Source: a virus
Taxonomy: Duplodnaviria > Heunggongvirae > Uroviricota > Caudoviricetes
Reading direction: 5' to 3' (one strand)
Length of the DNA stretch: 31,502 nucleotides
Virus record (IMG/VR): IMGVR_UViG_2531839662_000032
Numbering within the stretch: the first letter of the stretch is position 1; each line of letters begins with the position of its first letter. The notes under the pieces were generated by a model. The model was given only the letters and a program-made list of their open reading frames with translations, had not been told where the DNA came from and ran no database searches. This document shows, piece after piece, positions 3,675 to 19,943 of this stretch. The position numbers and the translations under genes were made by a program.

Positions 3675-5458
<1,784 letters not shown>

Positions 5459-5522: not shown

Positions 5523-6122
5523 TCAGAACTTATAACCGACACCCACGATGAAACCGTCAGTGCGCCAGTCGCCACTGCCGGAGCCTTCATAAGCAATATC
5601 AATGGCCACGGATTCGGTCGGGTTAAACTGCACGCCAGCTCCCCACGCCAGAGACGTGTTGCTGTGGCGACCGTCATCACTTCCGGTCAGCACGTCGTGC
5701 GTTTTCCCCTTGTTGTCAGTTACGCGGAGATAATCCCCGGAGAAAGTCGACACACGGCTGTAAGCCATACCCGCCATCGCATACGCGCTGAACAATTCAT
5801 TCACGCGCACAGACGGCCCCACCATCACGCTGAACCAGCGGTTACGCACGGAATCTTCATGCCAGCGGGTATCGCTGTAACGGGTAAGCTGGCGATTCTT
5901 GTCTCCTGCATAGCTGAATGACGTCACCATCCCCAGTGTGTCCGTAAACTCATAACGGTATTTCACGTTAATCCCGTTCAGATCATCGCTGCCGGGAACG
6001 TTCGTCGAGGCATGAAGATACCCCGCGCTCAGCGTGGACTGATGTTCAGATGCCCATGCAGGCGCACCGGATACGGCCAGACAAATGGCTGCGGAAAAAA
6101 TGGCGGCATAAAGTTTACGCAT
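5523..6122 (-). CDS. lom: Lom/Ail-family outer membrane protein
   Basis: Signal peptide [24 protein letters not shown] and C-terminal [10 protein letters not shown]...[25 protein letters not shown], as in lambda Lom. RBS AGAGG 6 nt upstream of ATG. Confidence 0.85.
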
Positions 6123-6191
6123 AATTACCTCTCGCTTTTCTGCAATAAAAAAGGCACCATTTCTGGTGCCCTTATATGGGTTATAACAATT

Positions 6192-14084: not shown

Positions 14085-14317
14085 GCTGCACCTCCGAGAT
14101 GCTTCATGTTTTTTCCGGAGCGAAAGGCAATAAGCGGCATACTGACGCGGTAATTGCGGCCCAGCGGTTCACAAATCACCTTCTGACATTCACAGTCAAC
14201 CAGGCTGACACGTAGAACATGCCCTGCAGGCGTGGTGTACCACTGCCCAACTGTAGGAATTGATATTTTTTTACGCTGAAGTAAACGGTGAATATTGAGG
14301 ATCAACGGATTAAGCAT
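14081..14317 (-). CDS. Hypothetical small phage protein
   Basis: 78-codon ORF whose stop overlaps the replication gene start (ATGA) and whose start overlaps the upstream ORF end. Confidence 0.4.
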   Translation of the reverse strand: MLNPLILNIHRLLQRKKISIPTVGQWYTTPAGHVLRVSLVDCECQKVICEPLGRNYRVSMPLIAFRSGKNMKHLGGAA

Positions 14318-15146
14318 GACGATGCCCTCCGCTGATATTCAGGAGACAGTGAATATGAAGATTAGCCTTATCCGCCAAACGAATACGTTCAGCCTGCAAG
14401 TTAAGAAGGGTTTCTACCAGAAGTTGATGCGCCTGCGGATCTGAAAGAGTTACCTTGCGCAGAGCACGTAGTGCTGTTGTTACATAACTGAGTTTATGTA
14501 AGTCTTCATCATTCAGACGAGTGAGGGCTGGGACTGTAGCCATGATGGCAGCCTCCGTATGCAATGGATAACTTCCACCACCGGAAACGCCAATTTCGCT
14601 GGTGGTGAACTGAGCAGGGTTGGCGTAACCGGCGCATACGGAAACCGGCGCACCTTTCGGTGCCCCCACCCAGCCCACCATAATTTGGGTATAGCTGAGT
14701 TGTAGCAACAAAAAAGACGCTAACGCGCCAATTGTCGCCGTATGCAATTCCAGGACGCCAATCCCGGCACCCGCTTTATAAGGTGCCTGAACAGTGTAAC
14801 GTCCCGGAATGACAGAATCAATGTGCTGGTGCTGTTTCACACTCAACAAAATCACGCCTGAATTTCCACAAAGGACTAAAGCACTCATGCGGGTAGTCTT
14901 TGCGAAGATAGATAACGCGCTGTGTTTCTGGTTCCCAACGAATAACATGGACATAAAGCCCTCTTCCATCACGAAACCAGCGGTTAAGTTCCTGCACAAC
15001 TCGCCCCCCACAGTCAGGTAAAGTTCTCTGTGGTTATTTACAGACAGGTGATTTGGTAATCTGCATTCATGCCGTAACAACAGGTGTTCAGCCACGCTGA
15101 CCACCAGCTGTTGCGACAAACGGTTATTTGCCGTTAAACTGTTCAT
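14310..15146 (-). CDS. Hypothetical phage protein (278 aa), unrecognised
   Basis: Long ORF in the early operon; start ATG overlaps the upstream stop (ATGA). No motif I can name. Confidence 0.45.
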   Translation of the reverse strand: MNSLTANNRLSQQLVVSVAEHLLLRHECRLPNHLSVNNHRELYLTVGGELCRNLTAGFVMEEGFMSMLFVGNQKHSALSIFAKTTRMSALVLCGNSGVILLSVKQHQHIDSVIPGRYTVQAPYKAGAGIGVLELHTATIGALASFLLLQLSYTQIMVGWVGAPKGAPVSVCAGYANPAQFTTSEIGVSGGGSYPLHTEAAIMATVPALTRLNDEDLHKLSYVTTALRALRKVTLSDPQAHQLLVETLLNLQAERIRLADKANLHIHCLLNISGGHRHA

Positions 15147-15737: not shown

Positions 15738-15938
15738 CTAATCTTTCGGATAGATATCCGGTCTTAAGTCAGATTTCGTAATTGCTCCTGATGTGCATTG
15801 CTCAAGTTTTTTAGCCAGTACAAAGCTGGCTTTTTTATAGCCATTGAAAACCAGCCGTAAGTAGCCAGGTGTTGAACCAACTTTTCCGGCCAACTCGCCC
15901 TGCTGTTCTTTGGTTAAAGAGTTCCAATACGCTTTCAT
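15738..15938 (-). CDS. Cro/YdaS-like HTH DNA-binding protein (66 aa)
   Basis: MKAYWNSLTKEQQGELAGKVGSTPGYLRLVFNGYKKASFVLAKKLEQCTSGAITKSDLRPDIYPKD is a Cro/CI-type HTH, divergent from the cI-like gene. ATG at 15938 with an AGGGGG RBS; the track's longer ORF would overlap the cI start. Confidence 0.65.
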   Translation of the reverse strand: MKAYWNSLTKEQQGELAGKVGSTPGYLRLVFNGYKKASFVLAKKLEQCTSGAITKSDLRPDIYPKD

Positions 15939-16028
15939 ACAATATGTACCCCCTGTATACATATTACATGATTGAAATGAACCTTCAAGATACTTGTACC
16001 TTAACGGTACAAAGGTTTTAATTTCGTT
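15939..16028. promoter_or_regulatory. Operator/promoter region (OR-like) between divergent cro-like and cI-like genes
   Basis: Inverted repeat ATATGTA-N9-TACATAT at 15942-15964 and perfect palindrome TTGTACC-TTAAC-GGTACAA at 15994-16012. Shared half-site (A/T)TGTACC recurs downstream of cI. Confidence 0.5.
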
Positions 16029-16703
16029 ATGAAAACAGTCCATGACATCCGGCGGTCTAACGCCAGAAAACTGAGAGATGGTGTTGGCGGGAATTCTTCC
16101 TTTGCCACCATGATTGATCGCGAGCCAACCCAAACCAGCAGGTTTATGGGGGATGGCGCCACTAAAAATATCGGTGACAGCATGGCACGGCACATCGAAA
16201 AATGCTTCGACCTGCCTGTCGGATGGCTTGATCAAGAACACCAGACAACAAACATCACAAAAAAAACTGATGTTTCAATCACTAACAAACAAATTACGTT
16301 AGTTCCTGTCATATCATGGGTACAGGCCGGAGCATGGAAAGAAGTTGGTTATTCTGAGGTTGATTTGAGCACAGCGGAAACGTATCCCTGCCCTGTACCC
16401 TGTGGCGAAATGACTTATATCTTGCGGGTGATTGGTGATTCAATGATTGATGAGTACCGCCCGGGAGACATGATTTTTGTTGATCCTGAAGTGCCTGCTT
16501 GCCACGGTGACGACGTTATTGCATTGATGCACGATACAGGTGAAACCACCTTCAAAAGGTTGATAGAAGACGGAACACAACGTTATCTCAAAGCATTAAA
16601 CCCAAACTGGCCTGAGCCTTACATTAAGATCAACGGTAATTGCTCTATAATTGGCACAGTAATTTTCTCAGGAAAACCAAGAAGATACAAAATCAAAGCC
16701 TAA
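16029..16703 (+). CDS. CI-like prophage repressor (HTH plus S24 LexA-type autopeptidase domain)
   Basis: N-terminal XRE-type HTH (...FATMIDREPTQTSRFMG...) and C-terminal S24 domain (...ILRVIGDSMIDEYRPGDMIFVDP...TTFKRL...) with catalytic Ser in GDSM and Lys in FKRL. Confidence 0.85.
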   Translation: MKTVHDIRRSNARKLRDGVGGNSSFATMIDREPTQTSRFMGDGATKNIGDSMARHIEKCFDLPVGWLDQEHQTTNITKKTDVSITNKQITLVPVISWVQAGAWKEVGYSEVDLSTAETYPCPVPCGEMTYILRVIGDSMIDEYRPGDMIFVDPEVPACHGDDVIALMHDTGETTFKRLIEDGTQRYLKALNPNWPEPYIKINGNCSIIGTVIFSGKPRRYKIKA

Positions 16704-16715
16704 TCAATGTTATGA

Positions 16716-16741
16716 ACCTGCTTCGGCAGGTTTTTTTATAC
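16716..16741 (+). terminator. Rho-independent terminator after the cI-like gene
   Basis: AACCTGC-TTCG-GCAGGTT stem followed by TTTTTTTAT. Confidence 0.55.
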
Positions 16742-16770
16742 TTGACAATGTACCTTTGAGATACATAATG
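16742..16770 (+). promoter_or_regulatory. PL-like sigma70 promoter with overlapping operator half-sites
   Basis: TTGACA (16742-16747), 16-17 bp spacer, CATAAT/ATAATG (16764-16770). AATGTACC repeats at 16747-16754 and 16767-16774 overlap it. Confidence 0.5.
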
Positions 16771-17232
16771 TACCCAAAAGAAACATGAAGCAGGCAAGAT
16801 TCAAACAAAATTTGGTTGTAACACGGCGTATGGCACATGCGTCGTTAGCGGTCTGGAGACGTTAAAGGGGACAATCCACTCCTTGCTCGGGCAAACAAAC
16901 CAGGTAGCCGGAATGTGCAAGTCAATGAGGATGCTGATAAGACGCCTAACCAGCGTGGCGATTCGGTTTGACGCCTGGGAAGAGACCAGGGTGCAACGAT
17001 GAGGGCATTTATGGAACCGCGACAAAGTGTGGTGCCGTAACTGGCTAAGTGCTCTCTGCGTTGTGGTAATCCGCGAAATGGCGCGGCGGTAAGTATGGCG
17101 GGGTTACTCTTTCCCCGTTGAGGACACCGGGTTGTCAGGTTGACCATACGCCTGAGTGACAACCCCACCACAACTGCCATTGCTTTGGCGGTACCAGTTT
17201 TTTCCTTAGTCCTTTCTGGCACCGCCCTTTTT

Positions 17233-17320
17233 ACAAAACAGAGAAGAGCATCACCGGACGATGGGCTCATAACCCAATCCATCCGGCAGTGACTACCGTA
17301 GGTGTTCTTCTCTGTTTTGT
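17233..17320 (+). repeat. Perfect 15-bp inverted repeat (ACAAAACAGAGAAGA / TCTTCTCTGTTTTGT) enclosing a nested hairpin, within the 740-bp non-coding leader
   Basis: Arms at 17233-17247 and 17306-17320, extendable to about 20 bp with G-U pairs. Inner hairpin CCGGACGATGG...CCATCCGG. Confidence 0.5.
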
Positions 17321-17445
17321 GGAGAAACTAACCGCCCCAGCGGGGGCATTTATGGAAACGTAATTGACTCAATAATCGCCGGATGGCGAGGGATTCTTGC
17401 AACCAAAATTCAACGCGGTGCAGCGCATATAACGTGGAGAACGAA

Positions 17446-17982
17446 ATGTCATTTATTAAAACTTTTTCCGGGAAGCATTTTTTTTATGACCGGATAAATA
17501 AAGACAACATCGATATTAACGATATCGCGGTTTCACTTTCAAATATCTGCCGCTTTGCAGGACATCTTTCACACTTCTACAGCGTCGCCCAACATGCGGT
17601 GCTTTGCAGCCAGCTGGTACCGCACGAATTTGCTTTTGAAGCATTAATGCATGATGCAACAGAAGCGTATTGCCAGGACATCCCCGCTCCACTGAAACGC
17701 CTTCTTCCTGACTATAAACGGATGGAAGAAAAAATAGACGCCGTAATCCGTGAGAAATACGGGTTACCCCCGGTTATGAGTACACCCGTGAAATATGCCG
17801 ATCTCATCATGCTGGCAACCGAACGCCGCGATCTCGGGCTTGATGATGGCTCTTTCTGGCCTGTGCTGGAAGGTATCCCGGCAACAGAGATGTTCAACGT
17901 GATTCCACTGGCTCCAGGCCATGCCTACGGGATGTTTATGGAACGCTTTAACGAATTATCGGAGTTACGCAAATGCGCATGA
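17446..17982 (+). CDS. HD-domain metal-dependent phosphohydrolase
   Basis: HD signature (...CRFAGHLSHFYSVAQHAVL...ALMHDATEAYCQDIPAPLK...). ATG at 17446 preceded by GGAGA; the track's 17383 start lacks an RBS. Confidence 0.7.
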   Translation: MSFIKTFSGKHFFYDRINKDNIDINDIAVSLSNICRFAGHLSHFYSVAQHAVLCSQLVPHEFAFEALMHDATEAYCQDIPAPLKRLLPDYKRMEEKIDAVIREKYGLPPVMSTPVKYADLIMLATERRDLGLDDGSFWPVLEGIPATEMFNVIPLAPGHAYGMFMERFNELSELRKCA

Positions 17983-18606: not shown

Positions 18607-18813
18607 ATGCTGAACCTCGATTGTGTTCCTATCTCAACTTATTGCAAAGAAACTGGCGAAACTCCTGAAGCAATAAACAAACGTGTACAGCGCGGTGTTT
18701 GGCGTGAAGGTGTTCAGGTTTTAAAGGTTGAAGGCGTTAAGGAGAGGTGGATTGATCTTAGTGAGGTTGCAAAATGGGCCAGACAAAACTGCTCAAACTA
18801 CCGCGCGGCGTAA
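18607..18813 (+). CDS. xis: Excisionase-like DNA-binding protein
   Basis: Small basic protein directly upstream of and overlapping the integrase start. GGAG RBS 6 nt before ATG 18607. Confidence 0.6.
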   Translation: MLNLDCVPISTYCKETGETPEAINKRVQRGVWREGVQVLKVEGVKERWIDLSEVAKWARQNCSNYRAA

Positions 18814-19943
18814 CAATCAGGAAACACCGCCAGGGCGAAACGATCAATATAACTTTCACCTACAAAGGTGTTAAATGTCGTGAGCCTCTTTCCAATCTGG
18901 AAGTAACACCAAAGAACATTAAATACGCCGAGCGCACACTCGGCGAAATTCATAATAAGATCGAAAGGGGAACATTCATTTATGCGGAATATTTTCCCCG
19001 TTCTGCTCGTTTGAAAATTTTTGGTAATGCTGCTGCAGGCAAAACGGTAAAAATGTACCTGGACGAATACCTTGAAATCTGCGAAACGAGAAAACTTTCA
19101 CCATCTACGATTGGTGGTTATAAAAAATGCCGTAGTGCGTTAGCCTCACTCCACATTTGCCCTGCAAGTGAACTAACACCAGCAATCCTGAAAGCGTGGA
19201 TTCAAAGCCAGAAAACGACCTTAAAAACAATTCGCAACCAGTTATCTTTCCTGCGGTCAGCACTTGATGAAGCCGTAACCGATGGGGTACTTCAAATTAA
19301 CCCCGTATCGTTGGTAACTGCTTCGCGCTACCAAAGTGATAAGTCAGAAGCAGAAAGCAGCTACGTGGTTGATCCGCTATCACCAGCAGAAGTTGATGCA
19401 TTACTAGCAGCAGCCGGAAACAAACAATGGGAGAATCTGTTCCGGTTCGCTATACATACAGGCCTGCGTAGTTCTGAATTATGTGCCCTTCGATGGCGTG
19501 ATATCGACTTTGTTGGAAAAACTGCCCATGTCCAGAGCGCAAGTGTTGTCGGTGTTATCAAAGGAACAAAGACAAAAGCCGGTACTCGTAAAGTTGAACT
19601 GACAGAAGATGCAATGTTGGCGCTGATAAATCAGAAGCCATTTACATTCATGAAGGATGCTACAGTCTTTGAAGATCCAAAGACCAATAAACCTTGGGCA
19701 AGTGCTGATGCAATTAGAAAAAAAGCATGGGTGCCAACATTGCGGAAAGCAGGTATTCGTTACAGAAACCCATATCAAACCAGACATACATTCGCCACCA
19801 GCCATATCAGCCGGGGAGCAAACCTGTTTTGGCTTGCGGTTCAAATGGGTCATAAAGGACCAGAGATGTTATTTAGACATTATGGCTCATACCTCAAAGA
19901 ATATGATGGAAATACATCTTTAAATAGAAAAAATAGATATTAA
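18774..19943 (+). CDS. int: Tyrosine recombinase / phage integrase (lambda-type)
   Basis: N-terminal arm-binding-type region (LPRGVTIRKHRQGETINITFTYKGVKCRE) and C-terminal catalytic region with ...TGLRSSELCALRW..., ...YQTRHTFAT..., ...GHKGPEMLFRHYGSY (R...HxxR...Y). GAGG RBS 7 nt upstream. Confidence 0.9.
   Translation: MGQTKLLKLPRGVTIRKHRQGETINITFTYKGVKCREPLSNLEVTPKNIKYAERTLGEIHNKIERGTFIYAEYFPRSARLKIFGNAAAGKTVKMYLDEYLEICETRKLSPSTIGGYKKCRSALASLHICPASELTPAILKAWIQSQKTTLKTIRNQLSFLRSALDEAVTDGVLQINPVSLVTASRYQSDKSEAESSYVVDPLSPAEVDALLAAAGNKQWENLFRFAIHTGLRSSELCALRWRDIDFVGKTAHVQSASVVGVIKGTKTKAGTRKVELTEDAMLALINQKPFTFMKDATVFEDPKTNKPWASADAIRKKAWVPTLRKAGIRYRNPYQTRHTFATSHISRGANLFWLAVQMGHKGPEMLFRHYGSYLKEYDGNTSLNRKNRY

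Follow-up and report, generated by a model that had tools for sequence, protein, structure and literature searches.

The untranslated leader that follows the early-left promoter of this phage is assembled from four or more structurally conserved RNA cassettes, each mobile independently of the others, and is not the single element of about 740 bp that had originally been proposed. The leader is non-coding, its functional RNA lies on the + strand, and it holds four helical domains that are backed by covariation; the view of the region as structured RNA is borne out by pair counts for the modules that we designate M1, M2, and M3. Coordinates refer throughout to the window, the whole 31,502-nucleotide stretch of viral DNA that was analyzed (IMG/VR record IMGVR_UViG_2531839662_000032). 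Taking three propositions jointly, we consider it probable that the leader is the PL-proximal untranslated RNA of the early-left operon of an N-less lambdoid prophage of the e14/cdtI/mEp460/Ayreon type, that it is built as a chain of RNA cassettes, and that it would work much as the dicBF untranslated region does.

The mosaic construction is evident from the distribution of matches. Specifically, segments of the leader match different phages (P1, phiV10/SPN1S, PPompW phages, SfII/SfIV, and ST64B), and in SfII, ST64B, and e14 the same terminator and M3 are preceded by different cassettes. The ST64B leader, 815 nt long and free of ORFs, ends in this terminator and M3. The homologous slot of ST64B is expressed: a non-coding RNA, STnc1310, is located there 3' of cI, and its induction accompanies that of the lytic genes (PMC7067206). 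Homologues of the modules, found in 34-52% of the complete genomes of E. coli as well as in numerous phages of Shigella, Salmonella, and Klebsiella, are unannotated or overlaid with spurious ORFs, such as ymfH of K-12.

Location, extent, and strand of the leader

The cI-type gene upstream of the leader (16029-16703) is 95% identical to ymfK of K-12 e14 and is followed on the + strand by its intrinsic terminator at 16714-16741 (a hairpin at 16714-16733 and then a T-run), which is annotated as a terminator in phage Ayreon. Directly thereafter comes a PL-type promoter (16742-16769, + strand), with TTGACA at 16742, a 16-nt spacer, and CATAAT at 16764-16769, matching 11 of 12 positions in a promoter scan; both the cI terminator and the near-consensus promoter had been noted before, at this place. 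Two 20-nt operator-like direct repeats on the + strand, belonging to direct-repeat family D2, overlap the promoter (16747-16766 and 16767-16786). Identity to K-12 e14 stands at 95% over 16000-16799, promoter included, and the match to phages of other immunity types begins at 16795, just past the promoter. There the conserved 5' flank of the PL transcript starts (16795-16820, + strand, with AAATTTGGTTGTAACA), which is also present in SfII and in P1 lies directly after tRNA-Ile. A pairing of positions 16808-16821 with 17397-17410 was considered and rejected, since relatives differ in the 3' partner without any compensating change in the constant 5' partner.

From the end of the -10 hexamer at 16769 to the yfdR ATG at 17446, the leader spans ~677 nt. 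The original prediction of a gene-free leader thus holds for the absence of an ORF and needs a small correction for the length, given there as 740 bp. The whole leader folds better than shuffled sequences on the + strand (z = -3.8) and on the - strand (z = -3.3), and because both strands do so, folding energy alone cannot pick the strand. The + strand was chosen on the basis of G.U pairs in the covarying helices and of gene orientation: M1 is abutted by tRNA genes on its own strand, and the leader modules run in the same direction as dicF and the P1 promoter Pban.

M1, a widespread pseudoknotted RNA

M1 (16821-16993, + strand, ~175 nt) is a well-supported and widespread structured RNA that is absent from Rfam, with no match in either gathering-score or E-value scans. 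It was delineated with a 41-sequence alignment (A3) and is a new family defined by covariance model R1, with which the window scores 135.3 bits. Its helices comprise a hairpin of 9 bp whose loop reads GCA, a long hairpin of variable sequence, H5 with the loop YYMACCA, and H6 with the loop GAAGAGA; a pseudoknot pairs (C/A)ACC with GGU(G/U), and a near-invariant block, GGTAGCCGGAATGTGCAAG, lies at 16903-16921. In A3, 91.9% of cells are paired, versus 30-47% when the partners are slid, and compensatory change is seen at 16 pairs, a level that none of 500 shuffles equaled; such changes occur in H1, H2, H5, H6, and the pseudoknot. A closing helix between the M1 5' flank and the M1 tail, judged by eye to be inconsistent across clades, was dropped. 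Conserved loops and a pseudoknot, as in M1, are more to be expected in an RNA that binds a protein or the ribosome than in an sRNA that acts by seed pairing.

M1 was found in more than 120 viral contigs, at 21 loci in Enterobacteriaceae-type genomes of about 10 genera, and in 1833 of 5426 complete E. coli genomes (34%). The phages that carry it include P1-like, epsilon15-like, and lambdoid types, and tRNA genes often adjoin it: in P1 it comes directly after tRNA-Ile and before ban, and in epsilon15-like phages it sits within a small RNA unit next to tRNA genes. In about 15 of 42 non-redundant contexts, M1 lies 80-140 nt past a cI-like gene, the repressor ORFs being of several lengths (218-277 aa). 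No description of the M1 segment of P1 was found in the literature searched.

The conserved M1 tail extends to about 17016, and it contains the first of two exact copies of the repeat GGGCATTTATGGAA (17003-17016, + strand), the second beginning at 17344. The original prediction had listed both copies within one structured leader. Both are present and exact, with 0.01 expected by chance and two copies in none of 100 shuffles; they are, rather than parts of one fold, module-boundary sequences, and a related tail containing GAGAGCATT follows M1 in many contexts. The repeat would also fit the RNase E motif RN|WUU. Between the tail and M2 runs a linker (17017-17059, + strand), recognized from alignment A1 and from tRNA positions, which holds a mini-ORF of nine codons and, at 17049-17059, the boxA-like TGCTCTCTGCG; phages of the phiV10 type have this linker ahead of tRNA-Arg.

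M2 and the DicF-type terminator hairpin

M2 (17060-17174, + strand) is a closed structured domain identified through homology to Qin and P1 and through pair counts. An 8-bp closing helix, GUUGUGGU/ACCACAAC, encloses hairpin 1 (17071-17086, which is the CCGCG-N6-CGCGG hairpin of the original prediction), hairpin 2 with a C/U-rich loop, and hairpin 3 of 9 bp, and there is a pseudoknot, GUAUGG:CCAUAC. Pairing amounts to 92%, and hairpin 3, the closing helix, and the pseudoknot all show compensatory changes. M2 shares 92% identity with the 115 nt that immediately precede dicF in K-12 Qin (1649251-1649365) and ~76% with the P1 Pban leader. Judged from these identities and from the order of elements, M2 and its synteny are evidently homologous to the Qin dicF locus. 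Further, M2 always lies 5' of DicF-type sRNAs, a pattern seen in 19 non-redundant loci; in all 19 representatives it is followed by a variable terminator hairpin, then by CCCTTTTT, and then by a long stem. In mEp460-type relatives, another cassette stands in for M2.

Directly 3' of M2, in an untranslated early-left prophage operon under a repressor and with the order and spacing of the dicF locus, lies a DicF-type sRNA with its intrinsic terminator (17184-17232, + strand), assigned from the hairpin, the U-tract, and dicF alignment and synteny. A terminator is present at 17187-17232: the arms GGCGGTACCAG (17187-17197) and CTGGCACCGCC (17216-17226) form 10 of 11 pairs around an 18-nt U/C-rich loop, and a C followed by UUUUU (U-tract 17228-17232) comes after the hairpin, with a folding energy of -16.2 kcal/mol. 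The GGCGG...CCGCC Rho-independent terminator that marks DicF is thus found here at 17187-17226, together with the U-tract, and the identical terminator hairpin occurs in K-12 e14. Over 51 nt, the hairpin region shares 76% identity with dicF, whose place in the gene order it also occupies. The best placement of the Rfam DicF model (RF00039), at 17184-17227 (+ strand), scores 11.4 bits (E = 5.4), below the gathering score of 48 bits; Qin dicF, as a positive control, scores 76.7 bits with this model.

In a crude RNAduplex test, complementarity to the ftsZ start reached -25.4 kcal/mol, weaker than the shuffle mean of -30.0, and K-12 DicF against ftsZ gave -38.5 in the same test, with 6.7% of shuffles at least as strong. 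Complementarity is thus no better than random, and a riboregulatory hairpin here would have to act on other targets than DicF does. The U/C-rich loop and poly-U tail of the putative sRNA would suit Hfq-dependent pairing with host mRNAs. The earlier suggestion of a riboregulator or attenuator is therefore upheld in part: there is a DicF-type sRNA-terminator module arranged as in the Qin dicF locus.

M3 and the junction to yfdR

M3 (17228-17325, + strand), characterized with a 29-sequence alignment (A4), has a 21-bp outer stem (17232-17252 with 17301-17321), an inner arm CCGGA..UCCGG, and a small third hairpin. The perfect 15-bp inverted repeat described earlier is its core (17233-17247 and 17306-17320) and extends to 25-nt arms that are 84% complementary. 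The segment 17200-17345 folds with z = -4.6 relative to shuffles. In A4, 94.5% of cells are paired, against 39-52% with partners slid; 6 of the 21 outer pairs show compensatory change, none of 500 shuffles scored as high, and the G.U pairs lie on the + strand. Lack of co-variation between the arms of the 17233-17320 repeat had been named in advance as an observation that would count against a structured RNA; the arms do co-vary. M3 occurs in 2801 of 5426 complete E. coli genomes (52%), and the phages that bear it include Shigella and Salmonella phages. Matches of the leader to Rfam miRNA and hairpin-ribozyme families were discarded as artifacts of the long M3 stem.

Enclosed by this stem is a hairpin, GGG-CUCAUAA-CCC (17263-17275, + strand), that is a 13-nt exact copy of the initiator tRNA-fMet anticodon stem-loop, with its three G-C pairs and CAU loop, and constitutes the longest common substring with K-12 metZ (nt 30-42). 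It is the most conserved part of M3 and is kept where the flanks differ; the CAU is retained in every variant seen, including loci retrieved without the motif, except the defective copy in K-12 e14. ARAGORN and the Rfam tRNA model detected no tRNA in the region, which has 13 nt of the anticodon arm only and no cloverleaf.

The junction that follows (17334-17357, + strand) holds a small hairpin, GCCCC-AGC-GGGGC, and the second GGGCATTTATGGAA copy, and relatives carry three extra ORFs at this point: in Ayreon and mEp460, these ORFs and a terminator hairpin, AAATGCCCC-TGC-GGGGGCATTT, come first, and sequence matching window positions 17334-17500 is picked up again behind them. The remainder (17358-17445, + strand) is the 5' UTR of the yfdR-like HD-domain gene, with a likely start at ATG 17446 preceded by GGAGAA, and it is conserved upstream of HD genes at many loci. 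The yfdR product has a sub-threshold Pfam YfbR-like/HD match (23.4 bits; cut-off 25.9), and the RefSeq name for the HD gene is yfdR 5'-deoxynucleotidase.

Proposed mechanism

The mechanism that we favor is modeled on the dicBF untranslated region, with a terminated and processed sRNA precursor and with read-through RNA cut in the M3 stem. Upon removal of the LexA-like cI repressor, RNA polymerase would start near 16777 and transcribe M1, M2, and the DicF-type hairpin. Many transcripts would end at the 17187-17232 terminator, yielding a primary non-coding RNA of ~460 nt, from which RNase E-type cuts at A/U-rich borders (e.g., GC|AUUU), and possibly other RNases, may free stable pieces, namely, M1, M2 as a closed domain, and an sRNA of ~50 nt that consists of the terminator hairpin. 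Read-through RNA would instead form the M3 stem, U-tract included, and an RNase III cut there would part the sRNA from the yfdR-xis-int mRNA.

In Qin, RNase III is reported to cut the stem 3' of dicF to give a 72-nt DicF, and RNase E to make the DicF 5' end (PMC5069750, PMC9438474). The roles of RNase E, RNase III, and Hfq here are predicted by analogy with that locus, and efficient termination, the processing sites, and trans-acting targets are likewise putative; suitable substrates, in the form of the 21-bp M3 stem and RN|WUU-like sites, are present. By its position, M3 is the presumptive analogue of the RNase III stem 3' of dicF. Qin folds into a comparable long stem right after dicF, and the parallel is positional only, as the two stems have no common sequence.

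As a separate observation, yfdR, xis, and int need read-through of the terminator, a step that the dicBF-like model leaves unexplained.

Alternative explanations

We find it barely credible that the leader is, as had been raised originally, a decayed early gene (e.g., a former N or exclusion gene) with incidental hairpins. A minus-strand ORF of 145 aa that belongs to a longer open frame of the window (160 aa), short hypothetical proteins annotated here in some phage records, and the K-12 annotation of ymfH over the homologous e14 segment could all be read that way, but the ORF is broken in nearly all of 32 relatives, and close relatives have different ORFs. Indels among the relatives are mostly 1 nt long rather than in threes, variable sites are spread evenly over codon positions (53/54/60), and a Pfam search of the leader gave zero matches; the listed ORFs are, as first suspected, not credible as genes. 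An intact coding gene in homologues would have spoken for the opposite view, and the ORFs seen there are broken, with none conserved. In addition, the helices are maintained by compensatory changes across sequences 70-95% identical, and the modules recur next to tRNA genes. Scarcely more probable is that the product is a minus-strand C4/CI-type antisense RNA across M2 that controls the PL transcript. The window does contain a true C4 and isrK pair elsewhere, and Rfam C4 matches weakly on the minus strand at 17082-17184 (21.3 bits, E = 0.26), yet this is far under the 45-bit gathering score (RF01695), the + strand G.U pairs in the M2 helices would turn into A.C mismatches in a minus-strand RNA, the orientation of M2 always agrees with that of dicF, the tRNA genes, and the promoter upstream, and a promoter scan for a nearby minus-strand promoter found none.

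Two further readings, both unlikely, concern M1 and M3. Lambda carries nutL and N at the slot where M1 sits, which makes read-through of early terminators in N-less lambdoid phages directly testable. Occupation of the slot by nutL and N, as in lambda, is not what we see: the window has no N-like ORF and no clear nut site, only the boxA-like sequence with a nearby hairpin, and an arginine-rich N-terminus is absent from the first PL proteins of Ayreon and ST64B. By analogy with HK022 put, M1, alone or with the rest of the leader, might act in cis as a processive antiterminator that replaces N, which we hold to be unlikely; so, too, is the joint proposition that it would modify its own polymerase and thereby allow read-through of the DicF-type and later terminators. 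This would accord with the spacing of M1 behind cI-like genes, with terminators downstream in the same operon (including the hairpin at 17187-17232), with the lack of an N-like arginine-rich protein, and with near-invariant unpaired nucleotides and a pseudoknot that suit macromolecule binding. HK022, however, has both putL and putR, whereas R1 finds one M1 per genome and, both in the window and in the complete phage Ayreon, no second copy in the PR operon; SfII, ST64B, and e14 share the terminator, M3, and the genes that follow with the window yet have no M1, even with the R1 model filters off; M1 also stands beside tRNA genes in P1 and in the epsilon15-like RNA unit; and M1 has four or more helices in ~175 nt, against two stems in ~70 nt for put, with no such two-stem sequence seen here. 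Neither blast nor R1 matched the 22-30 kb segment of HK022, a segment that is not a confirmed putL/putR site. The processive antitermination once suggested has found no positive support. Somewhat less likely still is that M3 is mainly a decoy or ligand built around the tRNA-fMet arm mimic, which, expressed at induction, would titrate a factor that recognizes the G-C pairs and CAU loop; such a factor might be a nuclease that cleaves tRNA-fMet (a toxin of the VapC type or an anticodon nuclease induced by DNA damage), MetRS, or the 30S P site together with IF3. An earlier example of a leader RNA that imitates an anticodon arm is the thrS operator. The exact 13-nt identity to metZ, the preservation of the arm and its CAU, and the carriage of M3 by Shigella and Salmonella phages argue for a decoy, as does the finding that Salmonella tRNA-fMet is cut in its anticodon loop on DNA damage and that VapC-LT2 cleaves tRNA-fMet (PMC7790460). 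Against it, the hairpin alone is mimicked and not the rest of the tRNA, no nuclease co-occurrence or experimental link was found, the mimic could be a structurally retained relic of a tRNA-Met gene fragment, and an RNase III site, as in the dicBF-like mechanism, is the simpler account of a long covarying outer stem.

Comparison with known systems and implications

Qin dicF (the ydfABC-dicF-dicB untranslated region, RF00039) is the closest parallel, having the same order of a structured domain, a terminator-hairpin sRNA, CCCUUUUU, a long double-stranded stem, and a downstream gene, likewise in a repressor-controlled early-left operon of a lambdoid prophage. It differs in that, in the window, the sRNA loop and 5' part have diverged, with no ftsZ complementarity and 11.4 rather than 48 bits, the M3 stem is unrelated in sequence and carries the tRNA-fMet arm mimic, ydfABC and dicB are lacking, and M1 is added upstream. 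The P1 ban leader, annotated as a 'dicF-like region' with tRNA genes, similarly has M2 and a dicF-like terminator directly after the C1-repressed Pban, with M1 and M2 alike under an early lytic promoter, but there M1 and M2 are 2.2 kb apart, as opposed to about 65 nt here, and P1 is without M3. HK022 put resembles M1 in lying just downstream of PL in an N-less lambdoid phage and in being RNA only, structured, and endowed with conserved unpaired bases, and M1 differs in being pseudoknotted, present in a single copy per genome, and found also outside lambdoid early operons. As for the tRNA-fMet anticodon stem-loop, its three G-C pairs and CUCAUAA loop are copied exactly in M3, and no cognate protein gene is linked to M3.

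Rfam scans of the leader, at gathering scores and by E-value, a check put forward with the original prediction, returned no family. The model of STnc100 (RF02076), which like STnc1310 is a prophage sRNA of Salmonella and E. coli, gives sub-threshold matches over the cassette that replaces M2 in SfII, ST64B, e14, and P1 and also over the Qin dicF-dicB spacer; the SfII match finishes with the GGCGGTACCAG terminator hairpin that the window also has. The window itself scores 12.9 bits (E = 4.4) at 17306-17489, under the gathering score of 47, and relatives reach 33-39.5 bits, also under 47. The Pas sRNAs (bioRxiv 2026.05.13.724894) were rejected as relatives, being late-region sRNAs unrelated to this locus.

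There is a small chance that the early-left leaders of N-less lambdoid phages are, more generally, exchangeable functional RNA arrays, of which M1 as a host-machine binder and M3 as a tRNA-fMet decoy would be new kinds. If so, M1 would bind RNA polymerase, Rho, or the ribosome, resulting in RNA-only antitermination or a takeover distinct from put, and the M3 decoy would neutralize tRNA-fMet-directed nucleases, or manipulate initiation, during induction. The tRNA-fMet arm copy in a phage early RNA in itself suggests a simple RNA-level interaction with initiator-tRNA-recognizing factors. Further, DicF seems to belong to a larger family of shuffled elements, each with a conserved structured domain, an sRNA whose terminator hairpin is hypervariable, and a long stem for processing, which would widen the pool of phage riboregulators made at induction.

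Setting and coding status of the leader

The window is DNA of Escherichia coli, and a 751-nt query around the gene-free leader, which lies within a lambdoid immunity region, matched strain UMNF18 at 100% identity in a similarity search. A cro-like gene (15738-15942, minus strand) and a LexA/S24-type cI gene (16029-16703), the latter 95% identical to ymfK of the K-12 prophage e14, are followed by the cI gene terminator (16714-16733) and a near-consensus promoter, TTGACA-16-CATAAT (16742-16769) with two 20-nt operator-like repeats overlapping it. Downstream, the first credible gene is a yfdR-like HD-domain gene with a likely start at ATG 17446, beyond which lie small ORFs, then an excisionase-like gene and the integrase. 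This layout bears out the proposal that the leader occupies the slot of nutL and N in lambda. The individual features named in the original prediction were all present at their positions, and the span does lack a coding ORF, its length being ~677 nt rather than the 740 proposed.

The leader is non-protein-coding. Across 33 distinct near-full-length sequences, the long minus-strand open frame of the window is broken in nearly all relatives, 72 of 115 indels scored relative to the window sequence are 1-nt events, and variable sites are spread evenly over codon positions (53/54/60). Together with a Pfam search of the leader that returned no match, these observations led us to reject the decayed early gene that had been offered as an alternative to a structured RNA. 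The short "hypothetical proteins" annotated over the leader differ from one phage record to another.

Mosaic make-up

Similarity searches showed that segments of the leader have differing relatives. As one block, 16795-17345 is found in phages cdtI, 2H10, Ayreon, mEp460 and Stx2c phages, beginning directly 3' of their own, differing repressor genes and promoters. Shorter segments match phage P1 between tRNA-Ile and ban (16810-16987), phiV10-type phages (16823-17066, ending exactly at the start of their tRNA-Arg), the start of the P1 Pban transcript, a GenBank "dicF-like region" (17071-17166), SfII and SfIV (17186-17345), and ST64B (17222-17332). We therefore handled the leader as four modules: M1, M2, a DicF-type terminator hairpin and M3.

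The 14-mer GGGCATTTATGGAA occurs twice in the window, versus 0.01 copies expected by chance, and both copies lie at 3' module borders, one in the M1 tail and one just downstream of M3. Between 17345 and the yfdR leader, Ayreon and mEp460 have an insertion of three ORFs with a terminator, and in Ayreon the second copy forms the 3' half of the terminator hairpin closing these ORFs, so that the window junction looks like a deletion between hairpins. By its published consensus, the RNase E preference RN|WUU would fit GGGCATTTATGGAA. Mini-ORFs also start from an ATG within each copy, namely MEPRQSVVP (17012-17041), which phiV10-type phages and a Klebsiella prophage retain save for a single amino-acid substitution, and a 3-codon ORF (17352-17363).

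A relative of the dicF locus

The central finding is the 92% identity of M2 (17060-17174, + strand) to the stretch of the K-12 Qin prophage directly upstream of dicF. The next segment, 17184-17233, aligns with dicF proper (76% identity), and GGCGGUAxCAG...CCGCCCUUUUU falls within the aligned part. By sequence similarity, part of the leader is thus clearly a relative of the dicF locus. In Qin, the dicBF operon is described as having a "long untranslated region" that contains dicF; the DicF 5' end is reported to be made by RNase E and the 3' end by either Rho-independent termination (53 nt) or RNase III acting on read-through RNA (72 nt) (PMC5069750, PMC9438474).

M2 is modelled as a closed domain of four elements: an 8-bp closing helix, GUUGUGGU/ACCACAAC, with a C-G to U-A compensation; the CCGCG-N6-CGCGG hairpin of the original prediction; a further hairpin with a C/U-rich loop; and a 9-bp hairpin with a CCAUAC loop that pairs with upstream GUAUGG, a pairing that becomes GCAUGG:CCAUGC in P1. 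Its structural support is weaker than that for M1 and M3, given the modest diversity of the alignment. Each of 19 non-redundant loci has, after M2, a terminator hairpin of similar stem and hypervariable loop, and then CCCTTTTT and a long stem. The hairpin of the window (17187-17232), also present in K-12 e14, is one variant of this series; at 11.4 bits it is not a member of the Rfam DicF family, and in a crude duplex test its complementarity to the ftsZ start region was no better than random.

SfII, ST64B, e14 and P1 have a different cassette ahead of the terminator, with sub-threshold matches to Rfam STnc100. The dicF-dicB spacer of Qin (L128:3433-3642), where both the dicB ribosome-binding site and the RNase III stem lie, also gave a full-length sub-threshold STnc100 match (34.4 bits), suggesting that this spacer and STnc100-type RNAs are related. 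In phages without M1, a further conserved cassette (..AACAGGCAGGACGCCCACGAAGTAGCC..GGATGATTCG..) comes first after PL: ST64B (L152:1949-2167), e14 (L337:~6090-6175, minus strand) and SfII (L003:1728-1798). Separately, a boxA-like string, TGCTCTC(T/A)GCG, lies at 17049-17059, 13 nt ahead of the CCGCG..CGCGG hairpin. The same string stands directly 5' of tRNA-Arg in phiV10- and SPN1S-type phages (L005, L006), and the first M2 bases, GTGGYA, match that tRNA's 5' acceptor strand exactly, so M2 stands in the place of a tRNA.

M3 and its copy of an initiator tRNA arm

M3 (17228-17325) begins at the terminator U-tract, and its G.U pairs place the RNA on the + strand. The inverted repeat of the original prediction is the outer stem of its three-way junction, and the arms do co-vary, 6 of 21 outer pairs being compensatory (e.g., G-C to C-G in 13 sequences). 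In an alignment of 29 non-redundant sequences, paired cells make up 94.5%, versus 39-52% with partners slid, and none of 500 shuffles reached the observed values. A comparable long folded stem lies directly 3' of dicF in Qin, where RNase III is reported to act (PMC5069750, PMC9438474); M3 is hence best read, by analogy, as the positional counterpart of this processing stem.

Unexpectedly, conservation within M3 peaks at GGGCTCATAACCC (17263-17275), a 13-nt exact match to the anticodon stem-loop of initiator tRNA-fMet (compared with K-12 metZ), forming three G-C pairs and a CUCAUAA loop. The hairpin is kept even where its flanks differ, and CAU is retained in every variant among loci gathered without using the motif; the M3 copy of the defective prophage e14 has lost it, its loop having mutated to UUAAUAA. 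M3 occurs in 2801 of 5426 E. coli genomes. In K-12, ymfH ("putative protein YmfH"; NC_000913.3 1201069-1201380, e14) runs on the opposite strand over the STnc100-like cassette, the DicF-type terminator hairpin and M3, and is probably a spurious ORF rather than a gene.

M1, a widespread structured RNA

Over an alignment of 41 non-redundant sequences, we propose that M1 (16821-16993, tail to ~17016) folds into four hairpins and a pseudoknot. The first hairpin has 9 bp and a GCA loop; the second is long, with a tip that varies; the third (4 bp) carries the loop YYMACCA and the fourth (5 bp) the loop GAAGAGA. The pseudoknot, of 4 bp, joins (C/A)ACC of the third loop to downstream GGU(G/U). In these sequences 91.9% of cells are paired, versus 30-47% with partners slid, compensatory change affects 16 pairs, and 0/500 shuffles reached the observed values. 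The pseudoknot changes from CAC:GUG to AAC:GUU between two near-identical Kosakonia sequences, and G.U pairs (e.g., in 40/41 sequences at two positions) assign the RNA to the + strand.

Exact search with the M1 19-mer GGTAGCCGGAATGTGCAAG matched >120 viral contigs, and an independent search with the first hairpin block found 21 loci in species-representative genomes, nearly all Enterobacteriaceae (~10 genera), the outliers being a contig of an Erwinia symbiont and a MAG contig of 1.7 kb that bears the label Bacillota. M1 is present in 1833 of 5426 complete E. coli genomes; 554 of all matching places are plasmid-borne, probably on P1-like phage-plasmids. The covariance model built here detected a single copy each in the window and in the complete phage Ayreon, with no match in SfII, ST64B, e14, Qin or the HK022 segment searched. 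No Rfam 15 family matched M1, and all 12 sampled matches lacked annotation beneath them. M1 lies 80-140 nt downstream of a cI-sized gene in ~15/42 contexts, and same-strand tRNA genes adjoin it in about one quarter, with tRNA-Ile2/Met directly 5' in P1 types and tRNA-Arg 40-110 nt 3' in epsilon15-like types.

The viral contig IMGVR_UViG_2791355294_000005 carries two same-strand copies ~800 nt apart (L024:3997-4155, 4804-4960), the second diverged even within the otherwise near-invariant 19-mer. In the Salmonella phage SPN1S, T-loop-like strings (GGTTCAATTCC, AGTTCGATTCGG) between M1 and tRNA-Arg (L006:2605-2725) suggest that tRNA genes have decayed within a small unit of promoter, M1 and tRNA, which is inserted opposite to the structural genes.

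Possible function and novelty

By analogy with Qin, the leader most likely works in a dicBF-like manner, in which a terminated, processed sRNA precursor would be made from PL and read-through RNA would be cut in the M3 stem. Independent support for non-coding transcription of this slot comes from ST64B, whose ncRNA STnc1310, downstream of cI, rises with the lytic genes (PMC7067206); the leader of this phage, ORF-free over 815 nt, ends in a terminator and M3. That M1 might instead be an antiterminator like put, the HK022 antiterminator RNA, a possibility raised for a related phage by Casjens and colleagues (PMC12315714), would suit leader-bearing phages that lack N and have terminators to pass; we nevertheless consider it unlikely, given that M1 has no PR twin, is absent from relatives with the same terminator and also lies beside tRNA genes in unrelated phages. 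For the tRNA-fMet mimic, a decoy or ligand role is speculative, and we give it very little weight; it takes concrete form from the reported cutting of the Salmonella tRNA-fMet anticodon loop on DNA damage and the reported cleavage of this tRNA by enteric VapC (PMC7790460).

A prophage early-operon untranslated region yielding sRNAs is of a kind already known. Within Rfam 15 and the literature searched, three things appear to be new: M1, a structured RNA family that is both widespread and well supported; the definition of M2 as a closed domain always accompanying DicF-type sRNAs; and the initiator-tRNA arm copy in M3.

Other elements of the window

A minus-strand C4-like RNA in the leader was considered and rejected. 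On the PR side, the minus-strand operon holds a full C4 antisense RNA (80.7 bits) beside an isrK RNA (61.2 bits) by Rfam (14598-14786), nested in a 278-aa ORF (14310-15146) that looks spurious; the pair, also present in Ayreon, resembles the P1 immI/Gifsy-1 isrK-type antirepressor control module. The window starts with the tmRNA gene ssrA (40-402; tag ANDENYALAA), and the integrase (18774-19943), at the distal end of the PL operon, is ~18 kb from it. Short for a lambdoid prophage, the element between the two may be a remnant or reflect a tandem arrangement.
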